Origin: an uncultured Clostridia bacterium
GTDB lineage: Bacteria; Bacillota; Clostridia; TANB77; CAG-508
NCBI GenBank assembly: GCA_947626605.1
Contig: CANQSV010000005.1
Span: forward strand, 647-64,646
DNA length: 64,000 nt
Direction of reading: 5' to 3'
Shown: positions 380 to 45,221 of the stretch, in pieces
Numbering within the stretch: position 1 is the stretch's first letter
How the letters are laid out: each line of letters opens with the position of its first letter
The notes under the pieces: model-generated
The model's database searches: none
Seen by the model: the letters and a program-made list of their open reading frames with translations, nothing else
Told to the model about the DNA's origin: nothing
Translations under genes and position numbers: made by a program

Positions 380-548
380 TTAACATCTCTACTGTTTTTG
401 GTTGTTCGGGTCGTCGAGGACGCCGACCCCTACACATGTGCAATGCATTTGCATTGCAATTAATAATTGATAATTAATAATGAATAATATATAATTTTTT
501 TACATTAATTATTCATTATTCATTTTTCATCATTCAATATTCATTAAA
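380..548. repeat. Modular intergenic repeat array A-B-C-D
   Basis: A is TTAACATCTCTAC (380-392). B is cGGGTCGtcgaggacgcCGACCCCTACA (407-434). C is the TGCAATGCAtttGCATTGCA hairpin (437-460). D is an AT-rich ATTCATT-rich block (461-548). The same modules recur at 5.5, 7.0, 9.4, 10.3, 13.8 and 44.1 kb. Confidence 0.8.
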
Positions 549-556
549 CATAAAAA

Positions 557-581
557 CGGGAGACCACTGGTCTCCCCTACG
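557..581 (-). terminator. Module-B hairpin that also has the form of an intrinsic terminator for the LRR gene
   Basis: The minus strand reads GTAGGGGAGACCagtGGTCTCCCGTTTTTAT, 19 nt after the stop at 600. It has an 8-bp GC-rich stem followed by a T-run. Confidence 0.6.
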
Positions 582-599
582 TTTCATTTAAAAATCTCT

Positions 600-2456
600 C
601 TATTTTATATCTTTTAAATAATTATATTTGCGATATGCGTATATTCCATATACTGTTGCAATTATAACTATTACCATTATTCCTCTTCCCAATCCTGTTT
701 GTGGTAATATTGTTTGTGATACTGTGTTGTCTTTCTTTCCTGTTGTTTTATTCTTTGATGAACTAGATGTGCTTGGTTTATTGTTACTTGTATTTGTTTT
801 CTTATCATTATCTATACTTGCACTTTGTACTGAGCCATTGGTATTTGAGTTGTTGTTATTGCCATTGTTATTATCACTATTATTGTCATTTACATTAGAA
901 CCTGCATTGTTGTTATTATCTGTTTCATTATCTTCATCATCTGATGTTGTTGGATTAGATGGTCTTGTTAAATATACTCTTTTAATAGAATATTCTTCAC
1001 CATATTTATCAGCAACAGAATCTTTGTAGCAGTAAATTGTTAGGTCATCACTGTGATCCCTCCCAAATGCATTCCCACCAATTTTTGTAACATTATCCAA
1101 AATTGTAATTTTCTTTAAACCTATACAATCAACAAAAGAACAATCTCCTATTTCCTTTACTGAATTTGGTATTATAGCTTCAGTTATTCCTTTGCAACCT
1201 TCTAGTAAATATCGTGGTATTCTTTGAATACCTTCTTCAAACGTTACACTTGTTATATTATCACATCCTGGGAATGGGGCCCCACCTCCATCTACAGATA
1301 GACTTTTAGGAATATATAATGAAGTTAAGCCCTTGCAATTTTCAAATGCACCTCCTCCTAACAGAGTAACTCCTGTTCCAAAATTTATTTTGGTTAAACT
1401 TGTACAACCATGGAAAGCATAAGGCCCTATTTCCTTTACTGAATTTGGTATTGTAACTTCAGTTATTCCCTTGCAATTGAATAGTAAATAGCTTGGTATC
1501 CTTGGAATACCTTCTTCAAACGTTACACTTGTTATATTATCACATCCTGAGAATGTAGATGAATGTTCATATCCATCTTCAGATAGACTTTTAGGAATAT
1601 ATAATGATGTTAAGCCTTTACAATCTTCAAATGCCCAACCTCCTAACTTCGTAATTCCTGTTCCAAAATTTACTTTCTTTAAACCTGTACAACCTTTGAA
1701 TGCCCAGAATCCTATTTCCTTTACTGAATTTGGTATTGTAAGCTCTTTTAATTCTGTACAACCACTGAAAGCCTTATACCCTATTTTCTTTACTGAATTT
1801 GATATTGTAAGCTCTTTTAAACCTGTACAAGCAAGGAAAGCAGAATCCCCTATTTCCTTTACTGAATTTGGTATTATAGCTTCAGTTATTCCTTTGCAAC
1901 CTTCTAGTAGATATTTTGGTATTCTTTGAATACCTTCTTCAAACGTTACACTTGTTATATTATCACATCCTGAGAATGGATCTGAACCTCCATCTTCAGA
2001 TAGACTTTTAGGAATATATAATGAGGTTAAGCCCTTACAATTTCGAAATGCCCAATCTTCTAGCTTCGTAACTCCTGTCCCCAAATTTATTTTTGTTAAA
2101 CCTGTACAACCATAGAAAGCACTAGCCCCTATTTCCTTTACTGAATTTGGTATTGTAAGCTCTTTTAATCCTGTACAACCATAGAAAGCAGCACTCCCTA
2201 TTTTAGTTACTTTCTTTCCCTCAATTTCATTTGGTATTGTAAGTTCTCCTTTTATTGCTTTTTGATTTGTACAAACCAAATTCACTACTTCATTAGAGTC
2301 ATTTAGTTTATATGTAAAATTAATATCTTCATTTCCTACCTTCATAGTATAAGTTTTCTTATCGTTATCTGCTGCATGTACAAATGTTGGAAATAATAGC
2401 AGAATTGCTACTAAAAGAATAAAAACAAATATTGATTTTATTGACATCTTTTGCAT
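600..2456 (-). CDS. Cell-wall-anchored BspA-type leucine-rich-repeat surface protein (LPXTG sortase substrate)
   Basis: Signal peptide MQKMSIKSIFVFILLVAILLLFPTFVHA. Many repeats of the form IPNSVKEIGxxAFxGCTxL. An N/S/T-rich linker, then LPQTG, a TM segment and a basic tail. The SD-supported ATG is at 2456; the ORF-track start at 2474 lacks an SD. Confidence 0.85.
   Translation of the reverse strand: MQKMSIKSIFVFILLVAILLLFPTFVHAADNDKKTYTMKVGNEDINFTYKLNDSNEVVNLVCTNQKAIKGELTIPNEIEGKKVTKIGSAAFYGCTGLKELTIPNSVKEIGASAFYGCTGLTKINLGTGVTKLEDWAFRNCKGLTSLYIPKSLSEDGGSDPFSGCDNITSVTFEEGIQRIPKYLLEGCKGITEAIIPNSVKEIGDSAFLACTGLKELTISNSVKKIGYKAFSGCTELKELTIPNSVKEIGFWAFKGCTGLKKVNFGTGITKLGGWAFEDCKGLTSLYIPKSLSEDGYEHSSTFSGCDNITSVTFEEGIPRIPSYLLFNCKGITEVTIPNSVKEIGPYAFHGCTSLTKINFGTGVTLLGGGAFENCKGLTSLYIPKSLSVDGGGAPFPGCDNITSVTFEEGIQRIPRYLLEGCKGITEAIIPNSVKEIGDCSFVDCIGLKKITILDNVTKIGGNAFGRDHSDDLTIYCYKDSVADKYGEEYSIKRVYLTRPSNPTTSDDEDNETDNNNNAGSNVNDNNSDNNNGNNNNSNTNGSVQSASIDNDKKTNTSNNKPSTSSSSKNKTTGKKDNTVSQTILPQTGLGRGIMVIVIIATVYGIYAYRKYNYLKDIK
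1040..2230. repeat. Intragenic LRR repeats, including a roughly 190-bp segment duplicated at a 702-bp offset
   Basis: Segment 1146-1335 matches 1848-2037 at an estimated 90 percent identity by eye. The protein shows a 234-aa super-repeat (GITEAIIPNSVKEIGD... occurs twice). Confidence 0.75.
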
Positions 2457-2495
2457 TTTTTCTCCCCTTTTCATCGGTAATTTTTTTCTGAAAAT

Positions 2496-4605: not shown

Positions 4606-5452
4606 TGCCACTTCCTCCTTTATGATATTGAATTAATTTATATAAAGTTTCTTTTAAATCTTTTCTTTCAACAATCTTATCTATAAAGCCATGTTCTAAC
4701 AAAAATTCAGCTGTTTGAAAACCTTCTGGCAAAGATTCTCCTATAGTCTGTTCTATAACTCTCTGACCTGCAAATCCAATCATAGCTCCTGGTTCTGCTA
4801 AAACAATATCTCCTAAACTTGCAAAAGAAGCTGTAACTCCTCCATAAGTTGGATCTGTTAAAACAGAAATATACAAACCTCCTGCTTCATCTAATTTTGT
4901 TAAAGCTGCTGTTGTTTTTGCCATCTGCATTAAAGATATTATTCCTTCTTGCATTCGAGCTCCACCTGATACACAAAAAATTATAAGTGGTAATTTTAAA
5001 GCTATTGCTTGTTCTATTGCATATGTAATCTTTTCGCCTACAACAACTCCCATACTTCCCATCATAAATCCACTATCCATAACACATATAACAACTTCTT
5101 CACCATTAATTTTACCAGTACCACATGCTACAGCTTCTTGTAAACCTGTTTTTTCTCTTAAAGCTTTTAATTTTTTAGGATATTCTTCTATTTCTAATGG
5201 ATTATTTGTATCTATATTTATATCAAATTTTTTATATGTATCTTCATCTAAAATCATTTTTAATCTTCTATTTATATGCATTCTGAAATAATGTCCGCAA
5301 TTTGGGCAAATACTCAAATTTTCTCTTACATCATCTTTATATACAATTTCTTTGCATTTATCACATTTTATCCATTTGCCTACTGGAATATCTATATTAG
5401 ATGTTTTATTTTTAGCAGATGGTTCACGTTTTTTTATTTTATCTACTATCAT
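4598..5452 (-). CDS. accD: Acetyl-CoA carboxylase carboxyltransferase beta subunit
   Basis: Zn ribbon CDKCKE..CPNCGHY plus the carboxyltransferase domain. The true ATG is at 5452, after GGTGAGGAAA. The 76-codon upstream extension in the ORF track reads through repeat elements. Confidence 0.9.
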
Positions 5453-5501: not shown

Positions 5502-5647
5502 GCGGGAGACCACTGGTCTCCCCTACGTGTGTTTATATTATTTTCTCTGTAGGGGCCGACCATTGGTCGCCCGTTTTGCCTAGTATTTTGTTGAAATAAC
5601 ATCTCTACCATTTTTGTGCTGTCGGGAGACCTCTGTTTTCCTCTACA
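5502..5647. repeat. Repeat cluster in the accC-accD spacer: B(+), B(-), A(+), decayed B(+)
   Basis: gcGGGAGACCactGGTCTCCCCTACg at 5502-5527. GTAGGGGCCGACCattGGTCGCCCg at 5549-5573. TAACATCTCTAC at 5597-5608. gtcGGGAGACCtctgttttCCTCTACA at 5621-5647. Confidence 0.8.
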
Positions 5648-6983
5648 AATTAAAATTCTTACTAATAAATGATGTATCAAAATCCCCTCTAATAAAATCT
5701 GGTGTCCTTATTATTTCAAATATAAAATCAGCATTTGTATCAACACCTTCTATTACCAATTCTTCTAGTGCTCTTTTCATTTTAGCAATAGCTTCATTTC
5801 TCGTGGTTCCATGTACAATTATTTTTGCAATCATAGAATCATATGTAAAAGGAATTGTGTAACCTTCATAAATTCCTGTATCAATTCTTATGCCATTTCC
5901 TCCTGGTAAATTAAGTCCTGTAATTTTTCCTGGGCAAGGCATAAAATTCTTTTTAGGATTTTCAGCATTTATTCTGCATTCTATTGAATGTCCCTTAAAT
6001 TCTATATCTTCTTGTTTAAATTTTAATTGTTCTCCTGCAGCAATTCTAATTTGTTCTTTTACAATATCTATTCCTGTTCTCATCTCTGTTATAGGATGCT
6101 CTACTTGAATTCTTGTATTCATTTCCATAAAGTAAAAGTTTTTATCACTATCTACTAAAAATTCAACTGTTCCACAACTTGTATAGCCAGCAATTTTCGC
6201 TGCTCTTATTGCAGCTTCTCCCATTTTATTTCTAAGATTTTCATCTACTATTGTTGATGGAGTTTCTTCTATTACCTTTTGATGTTTTCTTTGAATAGAA
6301 CAATCCCTTTCTCCAAGATGAACTATATTTCCGTGTTCATCTGCTAATATTTGAATTTCTACGTGTCTAGGATTTTTAACAAATTTTTCTATATATAATT
6401 CATCATCATTAAAAGAAATTTTTGCCTCTTGTTTTACTAAATTATAATTTTTTTCAAGTTCTTCTGGATTATTAACTATTCTTATTCCTTTTCCTCCACC
6501 ACCTGCAGCTGCTTTAATCATTAAAGGATATCCTATCTCATCTGCAATTTTTTTTGCTTCTTCTAATGTTTTTATATTTCCATCAGATCCCGGGATTACT
6601 GGTACTCCTGCTTTTTTCATCATCTTCTTTGCATTTGATTTGTTTCCCAATAATTCAATTACTTCTGATTTTGGTCCTATAAACTTGATATTTGATTCCT
6701 CACATATTTTAGCAAATTGCGTATTTTCAGATAAGAAACCAAATCCAGGATGTATACTATCACTTCCTGTTATATAAGCTGCTTCTATTATATTTTTTAT
6801 ATTCAGATAACTCTTATTTGAAGGTGCAGGACCTATGCAAATTGACTCATCTGCTAATCTGGTATGTAAAGCATCTTTATCTGCTTCTGAGTATACTGCT
6901 ACTGTTTTTATATTCATCTCTTTACATGCTCTGATAACACGAACTGCAATTTCACCACGATTTGCAATTAATATCTTATTCAT
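5643..6983 (-). CDS. accC: Biotin carboxylase subunit of acetyl-CoA carboxylase
   Basis: [15 protein letters not shown] start and ATP-grasp motifs ([18 protein letters not shown]). The ATG at 6983 follows AAAGGAA. The stop TAG at 5643-5645 lies inside the CTACA tail of a repeat. Confidence 0.9.
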
Positions 6984-10303: not shown

Positions 10304-10462
10304 GCGGGCGACCATTGGTCGCCCCTACGTGTGTGCAATGCATTCGCATTGCAATGAATATTTAATAGTTAATAATGAATAATTTATAATTTAAGATAAA
10401 AAATTGCACAGCAATTTTTTTACATTAATTATTCACTATTCATTATTCATTATTCATTAATT
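10304..10462. repeat. Modules B-C-D in the fabD-fabG spacer, extending about 20 nt into the fabD 3' end
   Basis: gcGGGCGACCattGGTCGCCCCTACg at 10304-10329. Hairpin TGCAATGCAttcGCATTGCA at 10334-10353. D block at 10356-10462. Confidence 0.85.
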
Positions 10463-13751: not shown

Positions 13752-13843
13752 AATGGTAGAGATGTTTCTTTTTTAATTGTATTTTTTATTAACATCTCTA
13801 CCATTATTATGTTATGCGGGTCGTCGGGACGCCGACCCCTACA
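13752..13843. repeat. Repeat modules A(-), A(+), B(+)
   Basis: AATGGTAGAGATGTT at 13752-13766 pairs with AACATCTCTACCATT at 13791-13805. gcGGGTCGtcgggacgcCGACCCCTACA at 13816-13843. Confidence 0.8.
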
Positions 13844-39767: not shown

Positions 39768-39806
39768 TCGCACTCCTCCTCATTGTCAATTTTTATTTTT
39801 TATCAT

Positions 39807-39959
39807 TACATAATGTGTGTTATTTTCATCTGTTTCTTCAAACCCCATTTTTTTATATAACTTAATTGCTCTTTCATTTAATTTAAATGCTTGTAATTTT
39901 ATTTTCAAGAAGTTAGATTTCTTTTAACATTTCTTTTATAATATCATGCTTTTGATACC
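39807..39959. pseudogene. Remnant second copy of the queH-GNAT gene (GNAT 3' end plus a 43-nt internal queH piece)
   Basis: 39807-39903 matches 40641-40736 with about 5 mismatches. 39917-39959 matches 41297-41339. Confidence 0.75.
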
Positions 39960-40619: not shown

Positions 40620-40872
40620 TTACCTTAAATATTTTATATATATGTAATGTGTGTTGTTTTCATCTGTTTTTTCAAACCCCATTTTTTCATATAACTTAAT
40701 TGCTCTTTCATTTAATTTAAATGCTTGTAATTTTATATTTTTACCTTTGTTCTCAAATATAATTTCTTTTAATATTACTGTTCCAATTCCTTTGTTTTGA
40801 TACTCTGGTTTTATACAAATATTGCCTATTTCAAAAGTATTATTACCTATTTCTTTTCCATTGTAAAATCCG
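40620..40872 (-). CDS. C-terminal two-thirds of a GNAT acetyltransferase domain, out of frame with the upstream queH ORF
   Basis: Translation GFYNGKEIGNNTFEIGNICIKPEYQNKGIGTVILKEII...LQAFKLNERAIKLYEKMGFEKTDENNTHYIYIKYLR* contains the Q/RxxGxG/A acetyl-CoA motif. Confidence 0.7.
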
Positions 40873-42512: not shown

Positions 42513-43994
42513 TTATATTTTTTCTATAATTATATTACTGTTTTTATTTTGTTCTCTGATTTCATCTGCTCTGTGTGAACGAATTTTATATTCGCAGTTA
42601 TTGTCAAATTTTATTATTATTGCTTTTGAATAATTTTCTGAATTATCTTCTTCTATAATCAAACTACCCTTGCTTTCTTTTAAAGTTTCAAATGTAGTCA
42701 TAAAACCTATTCCAGTACCACCACTGTCTTTATGTGTTGTTATTTGTTCTTTTCCGAGTTTTAGTAATGTTTCTATTTCAAATTCTATACCAGTATCATA
42801 AATTTTTATTTCGTATATATCATCTATTTTATCAAACACTACTAGTATTTTACGCAATTCATTTTTACTATAATTTATTGCTATTATTGCATCATTAATG
42901 TGGTCAGCCAATAAAGTAGCTAGTTTACTTTGGTTTACAATATTCGTTATTAAATCTTTTATATTACATTTGACATCTACTTGAAATTCTATGTTATCAT
43001 TGTTTGCTTTATTTGCCATATATTCTAATATATTGTCTATACTGAATACATTGGTTTTTGGCAATTTTGATTCTGCTTCAAAAGTTTCGCTTTTATAATC
43101 TTTTGCTAATTCTTTTACTAGATTGATGATTTCATTGTTTTCTTCTGCAAATTCTTCATTAAATTTTGCTTTTACTATTGCTCTTTCCATTGCTGAAATT
43201 CTATGATTGTATTTGTGATTAATTTTTAAAGTTTTATCTAAATCTATTTTTAGATTTTCTATAATTTTATCTTTTTCTTTTATTTGTTCATTTAAATATT
43301 CAACAGTTCTATCTTTCATTTTGGATTTGTAGTGGTTGGTGATGGAACGTTGGATGAGGAAGATAATTAATATTATTCCAAATATGATTAACAATATTGT
43401 AGTTCCAAATATAATACGCTTTTTAGTTATAGTAAATATGATATCAAGAATTATTGTAACAATTAATATAAGAGTCATTATATTTATTTCCATTGACAAA
43501 GTTTCTTCCTTGATAAAAGGAAAACCATCTTTAAATCTCTTTAACTTAAAGAAATAATATATTATTATAATTTGAATAACTCCTGCTATAAAGAATTCCA
43601 TTAAACTATTTATAATTTTATTAAAAATTTTTGCTTTTATTATATAGAAAAGTATAGCTGATGCTACAAAATAATCCATGAAAGAAAAACACATTGCCAT
43701 TAACATTATTACTAAGAAATTTTTATCAAATTCTTTCAGCATAATTGCAAATATTAATAAATATATACTATAACATATAAGGTTCATGAGCACTGGGGGT
43801 AAAAAACTATTTATATTTTCACGTATTATTGAATATAATATACTGGTCATAATATTAGTTAAAATTATTGATATAATATATTTTTTATTAACTTTGCTTC
43901 CTCTATTATATCCTTTAATCTTTATAAATGAATAAGATATACACCAATTCATAAAAAATGTTTTAACAAATATAATCATAAAATTTTCAATCAT
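42513..43994 (-). CDS. Polytopic sensor histidine kinase, AgrC-like (HPK10 / GHKL HATPase_c_5 type)
   Basis: 6-7 N-terminal TM helices. H-box-like INHKYNHRISAM, N-box LADHINDAI, G-boxes DTGIEF and GGTGIGF. Confidence 0.75.
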   Translation of the reverse strand: MIENFMIIFVKTFFMNWCISYSFIKIKGYNRGSKVNKKYIISIILTNIMTSILYSIIRENINSFLPPVLMNLICYSIYLLIFAIMLKEFDKNFLVIMLMAMCFSFMDYFVASAILFYIIKAKIFNKIINSLMEFFIAGVIQIIIIYYFFKLKRFKDGFPFIKEETLSMEINIMTLILIVTIILDIIFTITKKRIIFGTTILLIIFGIILIIFLIQRSITNHYKSKMKDRTVEYLNEQIKEKDKIIENLKIDLDKTLKINHKYNHRISAMERAIVKAKFNEEFAEENNEIINLVKELAKDYKSETFEAESKLPKTNVFSIDNILEYMANKANNDNIEFQVDVKCNIKDLITNIVNQSKLATLLADHINDAIIAINYSKNELRKILVVFDKIDDIYEIKIYDTGIEFEIETLLKLGKEQITTHKDSGGTGIGFMTTFETLKESKGSLIIEEDNSENYSKAIIIKFDNNCEYKIRSHRADEIREQNKNSNIIIEKI

Positions 43995-44060
43995 ATTTCT
44001 AACCTCTTTTTTATTATATTTAATATATTAGAAATAATCAAGGAAAAAATCAATACCAAT

Positions 44061-44199
44061 GTAGGGGTCGGCGTCCTCGACGACCCGCAAAGAATAAAAC
44101 TTATAGAGATGTTAATCTATAATAATTATAAAATAGTACAAAATTAACATCTCTACAAGTTCCACAAATCACGGGTCGTCGAGGACGCCGACCCCTACA
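44061..44199. repeat. 139-bp REPIN/MITE-like palindromic doublet: B(-) A(-) ... A(+) B(+)
   Basis: GTAGGGGTCGGCGTCCTCGACGACCCGc at 44061-44088. TATAGAGATGTTAAT at 44102-44116. AATTAACATCTCTACA at 44142-44157. cGGGTCGTCGAGGACGCCGACCCCTACA at 44172-44199. Confidence 0.85.
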
Positions 44200-44259: not shown

Positions 44260-44307
44260 TTATCTTCCAAACATTTTTCTTATGTATTCTAAAAGCTCCC
44301 ACCACAT
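44260..44307 (-). CDS. Candidate 15-aa small ORF MWWELLEYIRKMFGR
   Basis: ATG lies 7 nt after GAGAGGTG. It sits between the terminator of the Spo0A-like gene and the kinase gene. Too short for any compositional support. Confidence 0.15.
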   Translation of the reverse strand: MWWELLEYIRKMFGR

Positions 44308-44355: not shown

Positions 44356-44393
44356 ATAAAAAAATACTACTTAAACTGTTTTGTTTAAGTAGT
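44356..44393 (-). terminator. Intrinsic terminator after the Spo0A-like regulator gene
   Basis: The minus strand reads ACTACTTAAAC-loop-GTTTAAGTAGT followed by T7. Confidence 0.75.
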
Positions 44394-44432: not shown

Positions 44433-45221
44433 CTATATTGCCTTTTTTATTTTATCTACATAATAATATATAAATTCTGTTGGCTTTGGAACTCCTGTAT
44501 TATAATTTACTACTGCTGTATAGTATTTTTGTAAATCTTCTATTGATGATTTTCTCCATGCATGTTCTATTGCAGTTTGTATTGAACGTCCTATTGTGCT
44601 GTTTCCTTTTTTGTATTTCTTTGCTAAATATATAAATGCATTTTCTTTCTCTTCTTTTTCATCTAGCAAGTACATTATTACATCATGTATATATTTTCTT
44701 CCAACAAGATGAGAACTTATTCCTATTAAATCTAATTCTCTATTTATCCTTTCAGATATTCTTTCTCTATATTCTCCCTCACTTTGTTTTTCTATATCAT
44801 TTTCTAACTTTTCATTTGTTTTTATTTTACTAAGTAATACTATGTTCCTTATTACTAAATCTGGAGAATAATCTTCTTTCAATTTGTGAAATATCATATC
44901 AACACCGTTTTCATGTGCATATGTATATACTGTTTTTGATGATATATTTGTTGTTATTACAATTATTGGTTTAAAATCCAATTTCAAACTTTTCAGTTTC
45001 TCTAATATTTCTAAACCTGAACCCTCTCCATTATTTAATTCTATATCTAAAATTATTGCATCTGGAATGTATGTTTTTATTGATTCTATTGCCTTTTCTG
45101 GAGAGTTTACTATATTTATTAGTTTTACATCATCTCTTGTATTTATATAATTTTTCATGTTTATACAATCTGTTTTATCATCTTCAATTAACAAAACTGT
45201 GATTGGTCTCTTGTTACTCAT
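44433..45221 (-). CDS. Response regulator with a Spo0A-type C-terminal DNA-binding domain (Spo0A paralog)
   Basis: REC domain (LLIEDD, ILDIEL). The C-terminus IGISSHLVGRKYIHDVIMYLL...NSTIGRSIQTAIEHAW parallels Spo0A_C (GVPAHIKGYxYLR...SRVERAIRHAIEVAW). Confidence 0.7.
   Translation of the reverse strand: MSNKRPITVLLIEDDKTDCINMKNYINTRDDVKLINIVNSPEKAIESIKTYIPDAIILDIELNNGEGSGLEILEKLKSLKLDFKPIIVITTNISSKTVYTYAHENGVDMIFHKLKEDYSPDLVIRNIVLLSKIKTNEKLENDIEKQSEGEYRERISERINRELDLIGISSHLVGRKYIHDVIMYLLDEKEEKENAFIYLAKKYKKGNSTIGRSIQTAIEHAWRKSSIEDLQKYYTAVVNYNTGVPKPTEFIYYYVDKIKKAI

Follow-up and report, generated by a model that had tools for sequence, protein, structure and literature searches.

The window, that is, the whole 64-kb stretch of DNA analyzed here, originates from a rabbit gut metagenome, has a GC content of about 27% and carries most of its genes on the minus strand. 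The element under study is a pair of inverted hairpins tagged with GTAG (hereafter, the doublet), located between two co-directional minus-strand genes. Along the gene strand, the order is the stop of the regulator gene, a terminator, a small ORF, 60 nt, the doublet, about 20 nt, a promoter-like site, the RBS and the kinase ATG (43994). In this direction, the features of the locus are:

44433-45221, minus strand: upstream gene, response regulator with the Spo0A_C DNA-binding domain
44366-44393, minus strand: intrinsic terminator of the response-regulator gene (terminator scan)
44260-44307, minus strand: conserved small ORF MWWELLEYIRKMFGR, preceded by a strong RBS, GAGAGGTGA, at about 44322
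44172-44198, minus strand: right GTAG hairpin, the 27-mer of the left hairpin inverted, both GTAG tags thus facing outward (head-to-head dimer)
44143-44159, minus strand: right copy of module A, CTTGTAGAGATGTTAAT, whose own start is GTAG
44117-44142, no strand: AT-rich centre of 26 nt, the loop of the long hairpin, single-copy in the source metagenome
44100-44116, plus strand: left copy of module A, CTTATAGAGATGTTAAT, 13-16 nt inside the hairpin
44061-44087, plus strand: left GTAG hairpin (REP), GTAG + GGGTCG-G-CG-TCCT-CG-A-CGACCC + G, with an internal G.A mismatch
44013-44041, minus strand: promoter-like site of the sigma-A type, TTGATT-N17-TATAAT, of the kinase gene, about 20 nt downstream of the doublet
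42513-43994, minus strand: downstream gene, histidine-kinase-like protein of 493 aa, whose sole family match is weak and PhoR-like

All nine orthologous loci with sequence for this region have the small ORF, at a length of 14-18 codons, and in the window its stop codon is followed after 60 nt by the start of the doublet. The promoter-like site is conserved in L204, L206, L208, L210, L211 and L098 (orthologous and related contigs described below) and is similarly placed in L213. The whole window yields no Rfam match at gathering thresholds and no tRNA or tmRNA genes, hence the doublet represents neither a known RNA family nor an integration site.

Read directly, the sequence at 44061-44198 is a near-perfect palindrome of 138 bp, in which the left hairpin, the 27-mer GTAGGGGTCGGCGTCCTCGACGACCCG (44061-44087, plus strand), recurs without changes at 44172-44198 on the minus strand. 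The repeat finder delimits inverted arms at 44060-44116 and 44143-44199, each of 57 nt and 84% complementary, around the 26-nt centre. Both agree with the preliminary description of this DNA as paired inverted GTAG hairpins with an inner pair of module A and an AT-rich centre. Its coordinates hold to within 1-3 nt, though not its length of 139 bp with an end at 44199: the terminal CTAC ends at 44198, while A44199 pairs with T44060. In each hairpin GTAG abuts a stem of 6+2 bp with a 4-nt loop, in line with the definition of GTAG REPs (5' GTAG at 0-2 nt from a GC-rich stem-loop of 20-40 nt), and the spacer between the two hairpins is 84 nt.

The palindrome is real and far beyond chance. The exact 26-mer of the hairpin occurs three times in the window and never in 100 shuffles, and module A has seven matches in the window (with at most three mismatches) against 0.84 expected. 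The folding energy of the doublet is -99.7 kcal/mol for the sense RNA (z = -16) and -52.8 kcal/mol for the DNA (z = -19), the sense-RNA value ranging from -97 to -100 kcal/mol across two computations; the two inverted REPs are thereby able to form one long hairpin, as in REPINs. None of 200 shuffles folds as well, the identical sequence is found in four independent ENA assemblies, and the doublet has orthologues in other species. Taken together, the assemblies, the orthologues and the fold test already refute a chance palindrome or an assembly artefact, whose probability is negligible and in whose favour there is nothing except that Logan contigs break at the hairpin.

Overall, the window contains eight GTAG hairpins of the form GTAGGGG...CCCG, belonging to three stem classes. 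According to a comparison with the ORF list, all eight lie between ORFs or coincide with doubtful starts of ORFs, and thus this genome carries dispersed, mostly intergenic copies in the manner of GTAG REPs. Some of the hairpins form a composite unit of about 55 nt, comprised of the hairpin, 13-16 nt, and then module A as (G/A)TAGAGATGTTAA, and the doublet consists of two such units, inverted relative to each other. Elsewhere in the window, the following copies are found:

380-433, minus strand: half-unit, the exact 26-mer hairpin at 408-433 with module A at 380-392
557-580, minus strand: single hairpin of the class GGGAGACC/GGTCTCCC, followed by a T-run and lying 20 nt past the stop of the gene at 600-2474 (minus strand), terminator-like
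5503-5646, no strand: cluster with other hairpin classes, namely hairpins at 5503-5526 (minus) and 5549-5573 (plus), module A at 5598-5609, and a degenerate hairpin at 5623-5646
10305-10328, minus strand: single hairpin of the class GGGCGACC/GGTCGCCC
13755-13842, minus strand: three-quarter unit, an inverted pair of module A (13755-13766 and 13788-13804) with a variant hairpin at 13817-13842, without the left hairpin

A second full doublet of the same design (hairpin, N14, GTAGAGATGTTAAT ... AACATCTCTAC, N14, hairpin) was found at positions 4474-4624 of L123, a contig of the rabbit MAG Lapin-001__bin36, which is the nearest available species. Its locus is not orthologous to the one in the window and lies between convergent genes. 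Among 185,579 species representatives, the exact composite patterns (a hairpin with module A, or a module-A pair) occur only in Lapin-001__bin36 (L123 and L215). From these matches, the composite unit is dispersed, but only within a narrow clade. Since module A accompanies hairpins at unrelated loci as well, it belongs to the repeat and is not an operator specific to this locus.

The hairpin itself is distributed far more widely. In the collection of species-representative genomes, more than 116 loci from many genera of Clostridia contain the exact 26-mer; among the matches listed, almost all hosts are gut Clostridia, including Oscillospiraceae, Acutalibacteraceae, 'Lachnospiraceae' MAGs, Candidatus Fimenecus, Vescimonas, Faecousia and the cultured Gemmiger formicilis. 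The same exact 26-mer is common to genera with a GC content from 26% to about 60%, and its flanks are not conserved between genomes. The plasmid and phage collections yielded only three trivial matches of hairpin length (a Vescimonas replicon of 861 kb and two unannotated faecal 'phage' contigs). In 128 exact copies, 51 hairpins are single, 37 are arranged head-to-head, 29 in tandem and 11 tail-to-tail, so that the head-to-head arrangement, with GTAG outside, is the commonest paired form; its modal spacer is 28 nt, and the 84-nt spacer in the window belongs to the long end of the range.

The analysis of 76 distinct variants, all within six mismatches of the 26-mer, shows how the hairpin changes. 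GTAG GG is invariant, while the lower stem covaries (GGGTCG/CGACCC, GGGACG/CGTCCC, GGACAG/CTGTCC, GGGCTG/CAGCCC and others). The inner part, G-CG-YCCY-CG-A, is nearly fixed, with columns 11 and 20 retaining a purine-purine mismatch (G.A, sometimes A.G). Pairing is preserved in 97.9% of cells, and both sides have changed in 90 cells, compared to 20.4 in shuffles, none of 500 shuffles reaching 90. Five of the eight pairs are compensatory, and thus the stem shows the compensatory change characteristic of GTAG REPs. Judging by this pattern, the hairpin is a structure-constrained unit, bearing the signature of a protein that reads both sequence and shape.

A candidate for such a protein is a Y1 transposase of the RAYT type. 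The motif scan identified three Y1 HUH proteins at hairpin loci (L015, L100 and L111). All three match PF01797, two of them above its cut-off. The best NCBIfam model is the REP-associated tyrosine transposase NF047646 with 59-69 bits (under its cut-off of 80 bits), while the IS200 model scores 22-30 bits or gives no match. The best PDB match of the Clostridial proteins is TnpAREP from E. coli (4ER8, E = 0.007), with the HUH and Y motifs aligned. The RAYT gene in L100 is flanked by hairpins of the same class with GTAG toward the gene.

The profile scan shows at least 574 loci with RAYT relatives in gut Clostridia. In the best 80 of these, the hairpin density is 1.47 per kb within the gene and 0.07 per kb in the flanks, an approximately 20-fold difference. 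The hairpins in these 80 loci occupy two fixed intragenic sites and belong to the same class as in the window, two of them being the exact 26-mer and 35 falling within three mismatches of it; internal hairpins are present in L015, L111 and at least 42 of the 80 RAYT genes. The hairpin and a RAYT are found together in at least five MAGs (CAZLIB, SVQU, JAZPZZ, JAGBHV and JAGAKX). As far as profiles and motifs can tell, a RAYT-type Y1 family linked to this hairpin class exists in related gut Clostridia, and the cognate Y1 transposase that the preliminary description proposed to look for has thus been found at the level of the family. In the 64-kb window, the motif search and tblastn revealed no RAYT, only hairpin-encoded peptides being matched. 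The best 80 of the at least 574 loci all come from genomes with at least 34% GC, and in the relatives with 26-30% GC the only trace of a RAYT that was seen is a deleted relic in L010. Neither IS200/IS605 nor tnpB was found beside the hairpins in 116 loci.

A looser hairpin pattern, applied to 79 RAYT genes, revealed the organization of the two intragenic sites. The hairpin at the N-terminal site is present in 62 of the 79 genes in plus orientation and encodes VGxG..DxP. At the C-terminal site (56 of 79, minus orientation) it encodes GxSRTPxPT, and this site is situated just past the HUH strand, in an insertion of seven residues relative to 4ER8. Both hairpins are present in 51 of the 79 genes, head-to-head at a median distance of 145 nt and bracketing the HUH motif. 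The ORF is intact in 66 of the 68 hairpin-bearing genes. Moreover, codons 3 and 8 are exact reverse complements of each other in 60 of the 62 N-terminal-site hairpins, with 15 different residue pairs at these codons (G-A, D-V, T-C, T-G, T-R and others), and hence the amino acids follow the DNA stem. In L010, from a MAG with 26% GC, a head-to-head doublet represents a RAYT gene that has lost its middle part. In the literature searched, REPs within RAYT genes were not found to be mentioned.

These observations suggest that the segment inside the transposase gene is the ancestor of the REPIN-like doublets seen here. A stronger version, in which the autonomous unit is the RAYT gene with its in-frame REP pair, and intergenic doublets such as 44061-44198 are its derivatives by internal deletion or decay, is possible but tentative. 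For the doublet in the window the hints are weak, namely a shared TTGTAGAGA and ACAAAT(C/T)AC beside the hairpins. A direct derivation of the doublet interior from RAYT coding sequence is unsupported, the tblastn match being not significant (E = 0.84), and stays speculation.

To trace the history of the copy in the window, homologues of the kinase were mapped to their contigs, the position of the doublet was compared, and a kinase tree was built. The exact kinase protein is found on seven contigs of the same study, all with the 438-bp spacer, and the Logan contigs break at the hairpin. The doublet occupies the orthologous site in the window, L204, L206, L208, L210, L211 and L215, seven rabbit-gut lineages that constitute one clade of the kinase tree. 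The amino acid identity of the kinase is 70-75% in L204, L206 and L208, 62% in L211 and 59% in L210; L215, which belongs to Lapin-001__bin36, is about 85% identical at the nucleotide level. Neither the sister L212 (kinase identity 52%) nor L213 and L214 (46-47%) has a GTAG hairpin; the interval from the small ORF to the promoter contains a terminator-like hairpin instead. In the outgroup L098 (33%), the analogous spot carries a different doublet, with the same left hairpin, a right hairpin of another class and the shared TACAAAATTAACAT inside; either this insertion is very old, or a site of the same kind was hit a second time. Where the doublet is present, its hairpins drift, having four and three changes in L206, while in L215 GTAG has become GTGG.

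In the source metagenome, the centre of the doublet has a depth of 1.7-10.8x, the flanks being covered at about 6x and the hairpin bins at 95-115x (other species may contribute to the latter). No second full-length copy is present in the 64-kb window or in the source metagenome, and in four rabbit-gut runs no excision, empty-site or skipping joints were seen (in contigs only, where rare variants would be missed). The single-copy centre, the orthologous occupancy and the decay in L206 and L215 show that the copy is an old, vertically inherited insertion and not a recently amplified master copy. The drift of the hairpins in the latter two lineages also implies that selection on this copy is weak at best.

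As for a present function, the proposal in the preliminary description that the AT-rich centre may supply the promoter of the kinase gene was rejected, since on the gene strand the doublet contains no promoter-like site, whereas the conserved TTGATT-N17-TATAAT is located outside it (44041-44013, minus strand) and is retained in orthologues without the doublet. Nor does the doublet look like a canonical intrinsic terminator: the scan calls only 44393-44366, and the T-run of the doublet is about 12 nt away from the stem. G.U pairs number 7-10 on the sense strand and 0-3 on the antisense strand, and the sense strand is more stable by 13-20 kcal/mol (the window, L204, L206 and L208). This bias hints that the RNA is under constraint, which has been noted for GTAG REPs in general (PMC3733652). 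A comparison of the doublet with fourfold-degenerate sites, which are 82-90% identical among close relatives, has no power as a test of conservation. It is plausible, given the position of the doublet, that it serves as a 3' RNA hairpin, stabiliser or insulator for the upstream small ORF.

The reading that best fits these data, with a probability of about 0.7, is that the doublet is a head-to-head dimer of GTAG REP hairpins with REPIN architecture, an old copy from a REP family spread through gut Clostridia. The REPIN architecture suggested in the preliminary description is thus retained, the arms of 57 nt being 84% complementary, while its view of the doublet as the intact, mobile form of the family is not, in the light of the single-copy centre, the orthologous position in seven lineages and the decay in L206 and L215. 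Two features could still speak for a currently active REPIN, acting in this genome as the replicative master copy of its family: the doublet is the most symmetrical and best preserved in the window, both its hairpins being the exact canonical 26-mer, and a doublet of the same family occupies a different locus in the nearest species (L123). Such activity is nevertheless improbable, as the elevated depth is confined to the hairpin bins and does not extend to the centre, its other copies in the window amount to half or three-quarters of a unit and differ in their linkers, seven lineages have the doublet at the orthologous site, and the exact module-A pair pattern is found in only one other genome of the 185,579 species representatives. 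No population of near-identical doublets was observed within this genome (in the window and by metagenome depth), the only relatives, at the level of architecture, being the doublet in L123 and the units at 380-433 and 13755-13842. The vertical persistence at orthologous sites is, at the same time, typical of REPINs. Somewhat more weight, though still on the unlikely side, can be given to the doublet being primarily a regulatory element of the host, its REP ancestry being incidental, either as an RNA hairpin (terminator, stabiliser or insulator) or as a module-A operator for the neighbouring Spo0A_C regulator or the HTH_3 protein. This would agree with the position of the doublet, which in seven lineages is always between the small ORF and the promoter of the kinase gene, with the terminator-like hairpin that fills the same slot in L212, L213 and L214, with the bias of G.U pairs to the sense strand, and with the different REP doublet at the analogous spot of the outgroup L098. 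It agrees less well with the attachment of module A to hairpins at unrelated loci, the conservation of the doublet not clearly above that of fourfold-degenerate sites, the decay of the hairpins in L206 and L215, and the lack of a canonical terminator tail.

The preliminary description had also considered a palindromic MITE derived from IS200/IS605. In this case the doublet would be a PATE mobilised by a classical TnpA(IS200) or a TnpB-type element. Terminal hairpins do in principle resemble the ends of IS200/IS605, the Y1 HUH fold is common to RAYTs and TnpA(IS200), and the doublet in L010 is an internally deleted transposase gene, internal deletion of a transposase gene being the classical route to MITEs. 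However, the expected ends are distinct left and right subterminal hairpins from a resident IS200/IS605 copy, and here they are identical inverted 27-mers with the REP-specific 5' GTAG. The proteins, too, are closer to RAYTs than to IS200 transposases (59-69 bits versus 22-30 bits or no match), the best solved relative is TnpAREP, and no tnpB-like gene adjoins. Because of the identical GTAG-tagged ends and the affinity of the proteins, an IS200/IS605 MITE fits worse than the RAYT/REP model and is quite improbable.

The REP-dimer reading can be compared with the systems described so far. As in GTAG REPs (Di Nocera et al. 2013, PMC3733652), a 5' GTAG abuts a GC-rich stem-loop of about 23 nt, and there are many intergenic copies, mostly between co-directional genes. 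Dimers of GTAG REPs are head-to-head and 20-100 bp apart (PMC3733652); the doublet in the window, with GTAG outside, 84 nt between the hairpins and the possibility of a larger hairpin, falls within this range. Unlike the described GTAG REPs, the hairpins here are isolated GC islands in host genomes with 26-30% GC, and inside the dimer there is a second inverted repeat, the AT-rich module A, which moves together with the hairpin. The similarity to the REPIN-RAYT systems of Pseudomonas and Escherichia (PMC3116915; PMC5581495) consists in two inverted REPs forming one long hairpin, an associated RAYT gene family and long vertical persistence at orthologous sites. The differences are that no population of near-identical doublets is seen for this sequence, and that Clostridial RAYT genes hold the REP pair inside the ORF, instead of or besides flanking copies. 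The invariant GTAG and the conserved stem mismatch are shared with the REP/BIME-TnpAREP system of E. coli (Ton-Hoang 2012; Messing 2012, PDB 4ER8; PMC8266576), where GTAG and the stem bulge are required for cleavage by TnpAREP, which occurs at CT (Corneloup 2021, PMC8266576), the need for the bulge having been found for group 2 REPs. In contrast to E. coli TnpAREP, the protein similarity is low (E = 0.007), and there is a single G.A mismatch rather than AA-GC. With PATEs the doublet shares its being a short non-autonomous element with hairpin ends, dependent on a Y1 HUH enzyme, but its symmetric GTAG-tagged ends, the absence of distinct left and right ends and the absence of tnpB set it apart.

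TnpAREP of E. coli, Stenotrophomonas and Marinomonas suggests by analogy that GTAG and the mismatch would be the features through which a RAYT binds the hairpin, folded from single-stranded DNA, and that the enzyme would then cut at a nearby dinucleotide, leading to dispersal of the units. Today, the doublet would be transcribed from the side of the small ORF, and the RNA would fold into a hairpin of about -97 kcal/mol. The folded hairpin would end or protect the small-ORF transcript and shield the kinase promoter from read-through.

To our knowledge, REP and REPIN-RAYT systems have been characterised almost entirely in Proteobacteria. Neither Clostridia nor Firmicutes are mentioned in the survey of Di Nocera 2013 (PMC3733652), RepRanger 2025 does not mention Clostridia and has three Bacillota genomes in one table only, and the sole such remark in Bertels 2017 (PMC5581495) is that Group 1 RAYTs occur in Clostridia. 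The present analysis shows a GTAG-REP family of the same logic, with an invariant GTAG, a stem mismatch, a covarying stem and head-to-head dimers, that is widespread in uncultured gut Clostridia. The locus described here is a natural series for the effect of a REP doublet on its neighbours, the site being filled in seven lineages, decaying in two of these, and empty in three, with the conserved small ORF and the promoter of the kinase alongside in every case. The side finding of hairpins inside RAYT genes may matter more than the locus itself. If the RAYT gene with its in-frame REP pair is indeed the autonomous unit, the DNA substrate of the enzyme would itself encode two of the enzyme's loops, whose residues covary because the DNA stem must pair. 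In-frame substrate hairpins would tie the protein sequence of RAYTs to a constraint of DNA structure and would offer a possible route for the origin of REPINs from a transposase gene.

In gut Clostridia, cognate GTAG hairpins lie in frame within the ORFs of RAYTs (REP-associated tyrosine transposases) at two fixed sites, as seen among the 80 best RAYT loci from other Clostridia (L124-L203) and in the following genes from stretches of relatives:

L015 2495-2992, minus strand: RAYT ORF carrying cognate GTAG hairpins in frame.
L111 about 4833-5330, minus strand: RAYT ORF carrying cognate GTAG hairpins in frame.

The hairpin at the N-terminal site encodes the peptide VGxG..DxP and the one at the C-terminal site encodes GxSRTPxPT, the two being arranged head-to-head about 145 nt apart and flanking the HUH motif on both sides. 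Almost all of the hairpin-bearing ORFs (66/68) are intact. In 60 of the 62 genes, codons 3 and 8 of the N-terminal-site hairpin are exact reverse complements of each other, and thus the encoded residues covary with the DNA stem.

The doublet of the window (44061-44198), which consists of two inverted hairpins of the same GTAG type, is located between the kinase promoter and a small ORF:

Window 44260-44307, minus strand: small ORF of 15 codons, MWWELLEYIRKMFGR, with the RBS at about 44322, between the response-regulator terminator and the doublet.

All nine orthologous regulator-kinase loci with sequence spanning this region have an ORF of 14-18 codons with the common core [DE]Y[IL][RK][RK], which is kept even in the loci that lack the doublet. 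It might encode a peptide with a signalling or regulatory role in the adjoining two-component pair.

At the analogous position of a distant relative (L098, the outgroup kinase locus, JAISHG010000093.1, 4382-4492; kinase identity 33%) there is a different REP doublet, with the left 26-mer being the same as in the window and the right hairpin being GTAGGGGCGCATGATTGCGCCC; the kinase -35 element begins 10 nt downstream of the doublet end. Either this doublet was inserted very long ago, or the same kind of site has been targeted repeatedly.

A long, GC-richer hairpin at 165-310 of the window (fold -73.9 kcal/mol, z = -11) starts with GTTGTTCGGGTCG, which is repeated directly at 400-413, where it spans the flank and the initial stem bases of a hairpin. 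It also contains the motifs GGACGCCAG and GTCTCTAC, resembling the GTAG hairpin and module A (the inner repeat of the doublet), and could be a member of the GTAG hairpin family that has been expanded or rearranged. A further palindromic module, (GTG)TGCAATGCATT(T/C)GCATTGCAA, is found at 434-460 and 10329-10352 of the window, and at 4683-4706 of L123 (rabbit MAG Lapin-001__bin36). It immediately adjoins the CTAC end of hairpins from two different classes and is followed by AT-rich TAATAAT-type repeats, being a second composite partner of GTAG hairpins. One REP hairpin looks like a working intrinsic terminator:

Window 557-580, minus strand: hairpin GTAGGGGAGACCAGTGGTCTCCCG followed by TTTTTAT; the 600-2474 gene (minus strand) has its stop codon 20 nt before the hairpin.

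A 111-bp repeat of the window (39795-39905 and 40629-40739, 91% identity, about 830 bp apart), known solely from secondary BLAST hits, lies close to Fic and DUF1016 genes.

In L010, a stretch of a relative (CAYVYP010000032.1; MAG, 26% GC), the head-to-head hairpin doublet at 6422-6635 is a RAYT gene with an internal deletion, retaining IVGVGVLDDP, YGYIVEKY and GSSRTPTPT..LPFIISILKRF (tblastn E = 7e-5), while the HUH region is missing. This relic points to a possible route by which a transposase gene could yield a REPIN-like doublet.
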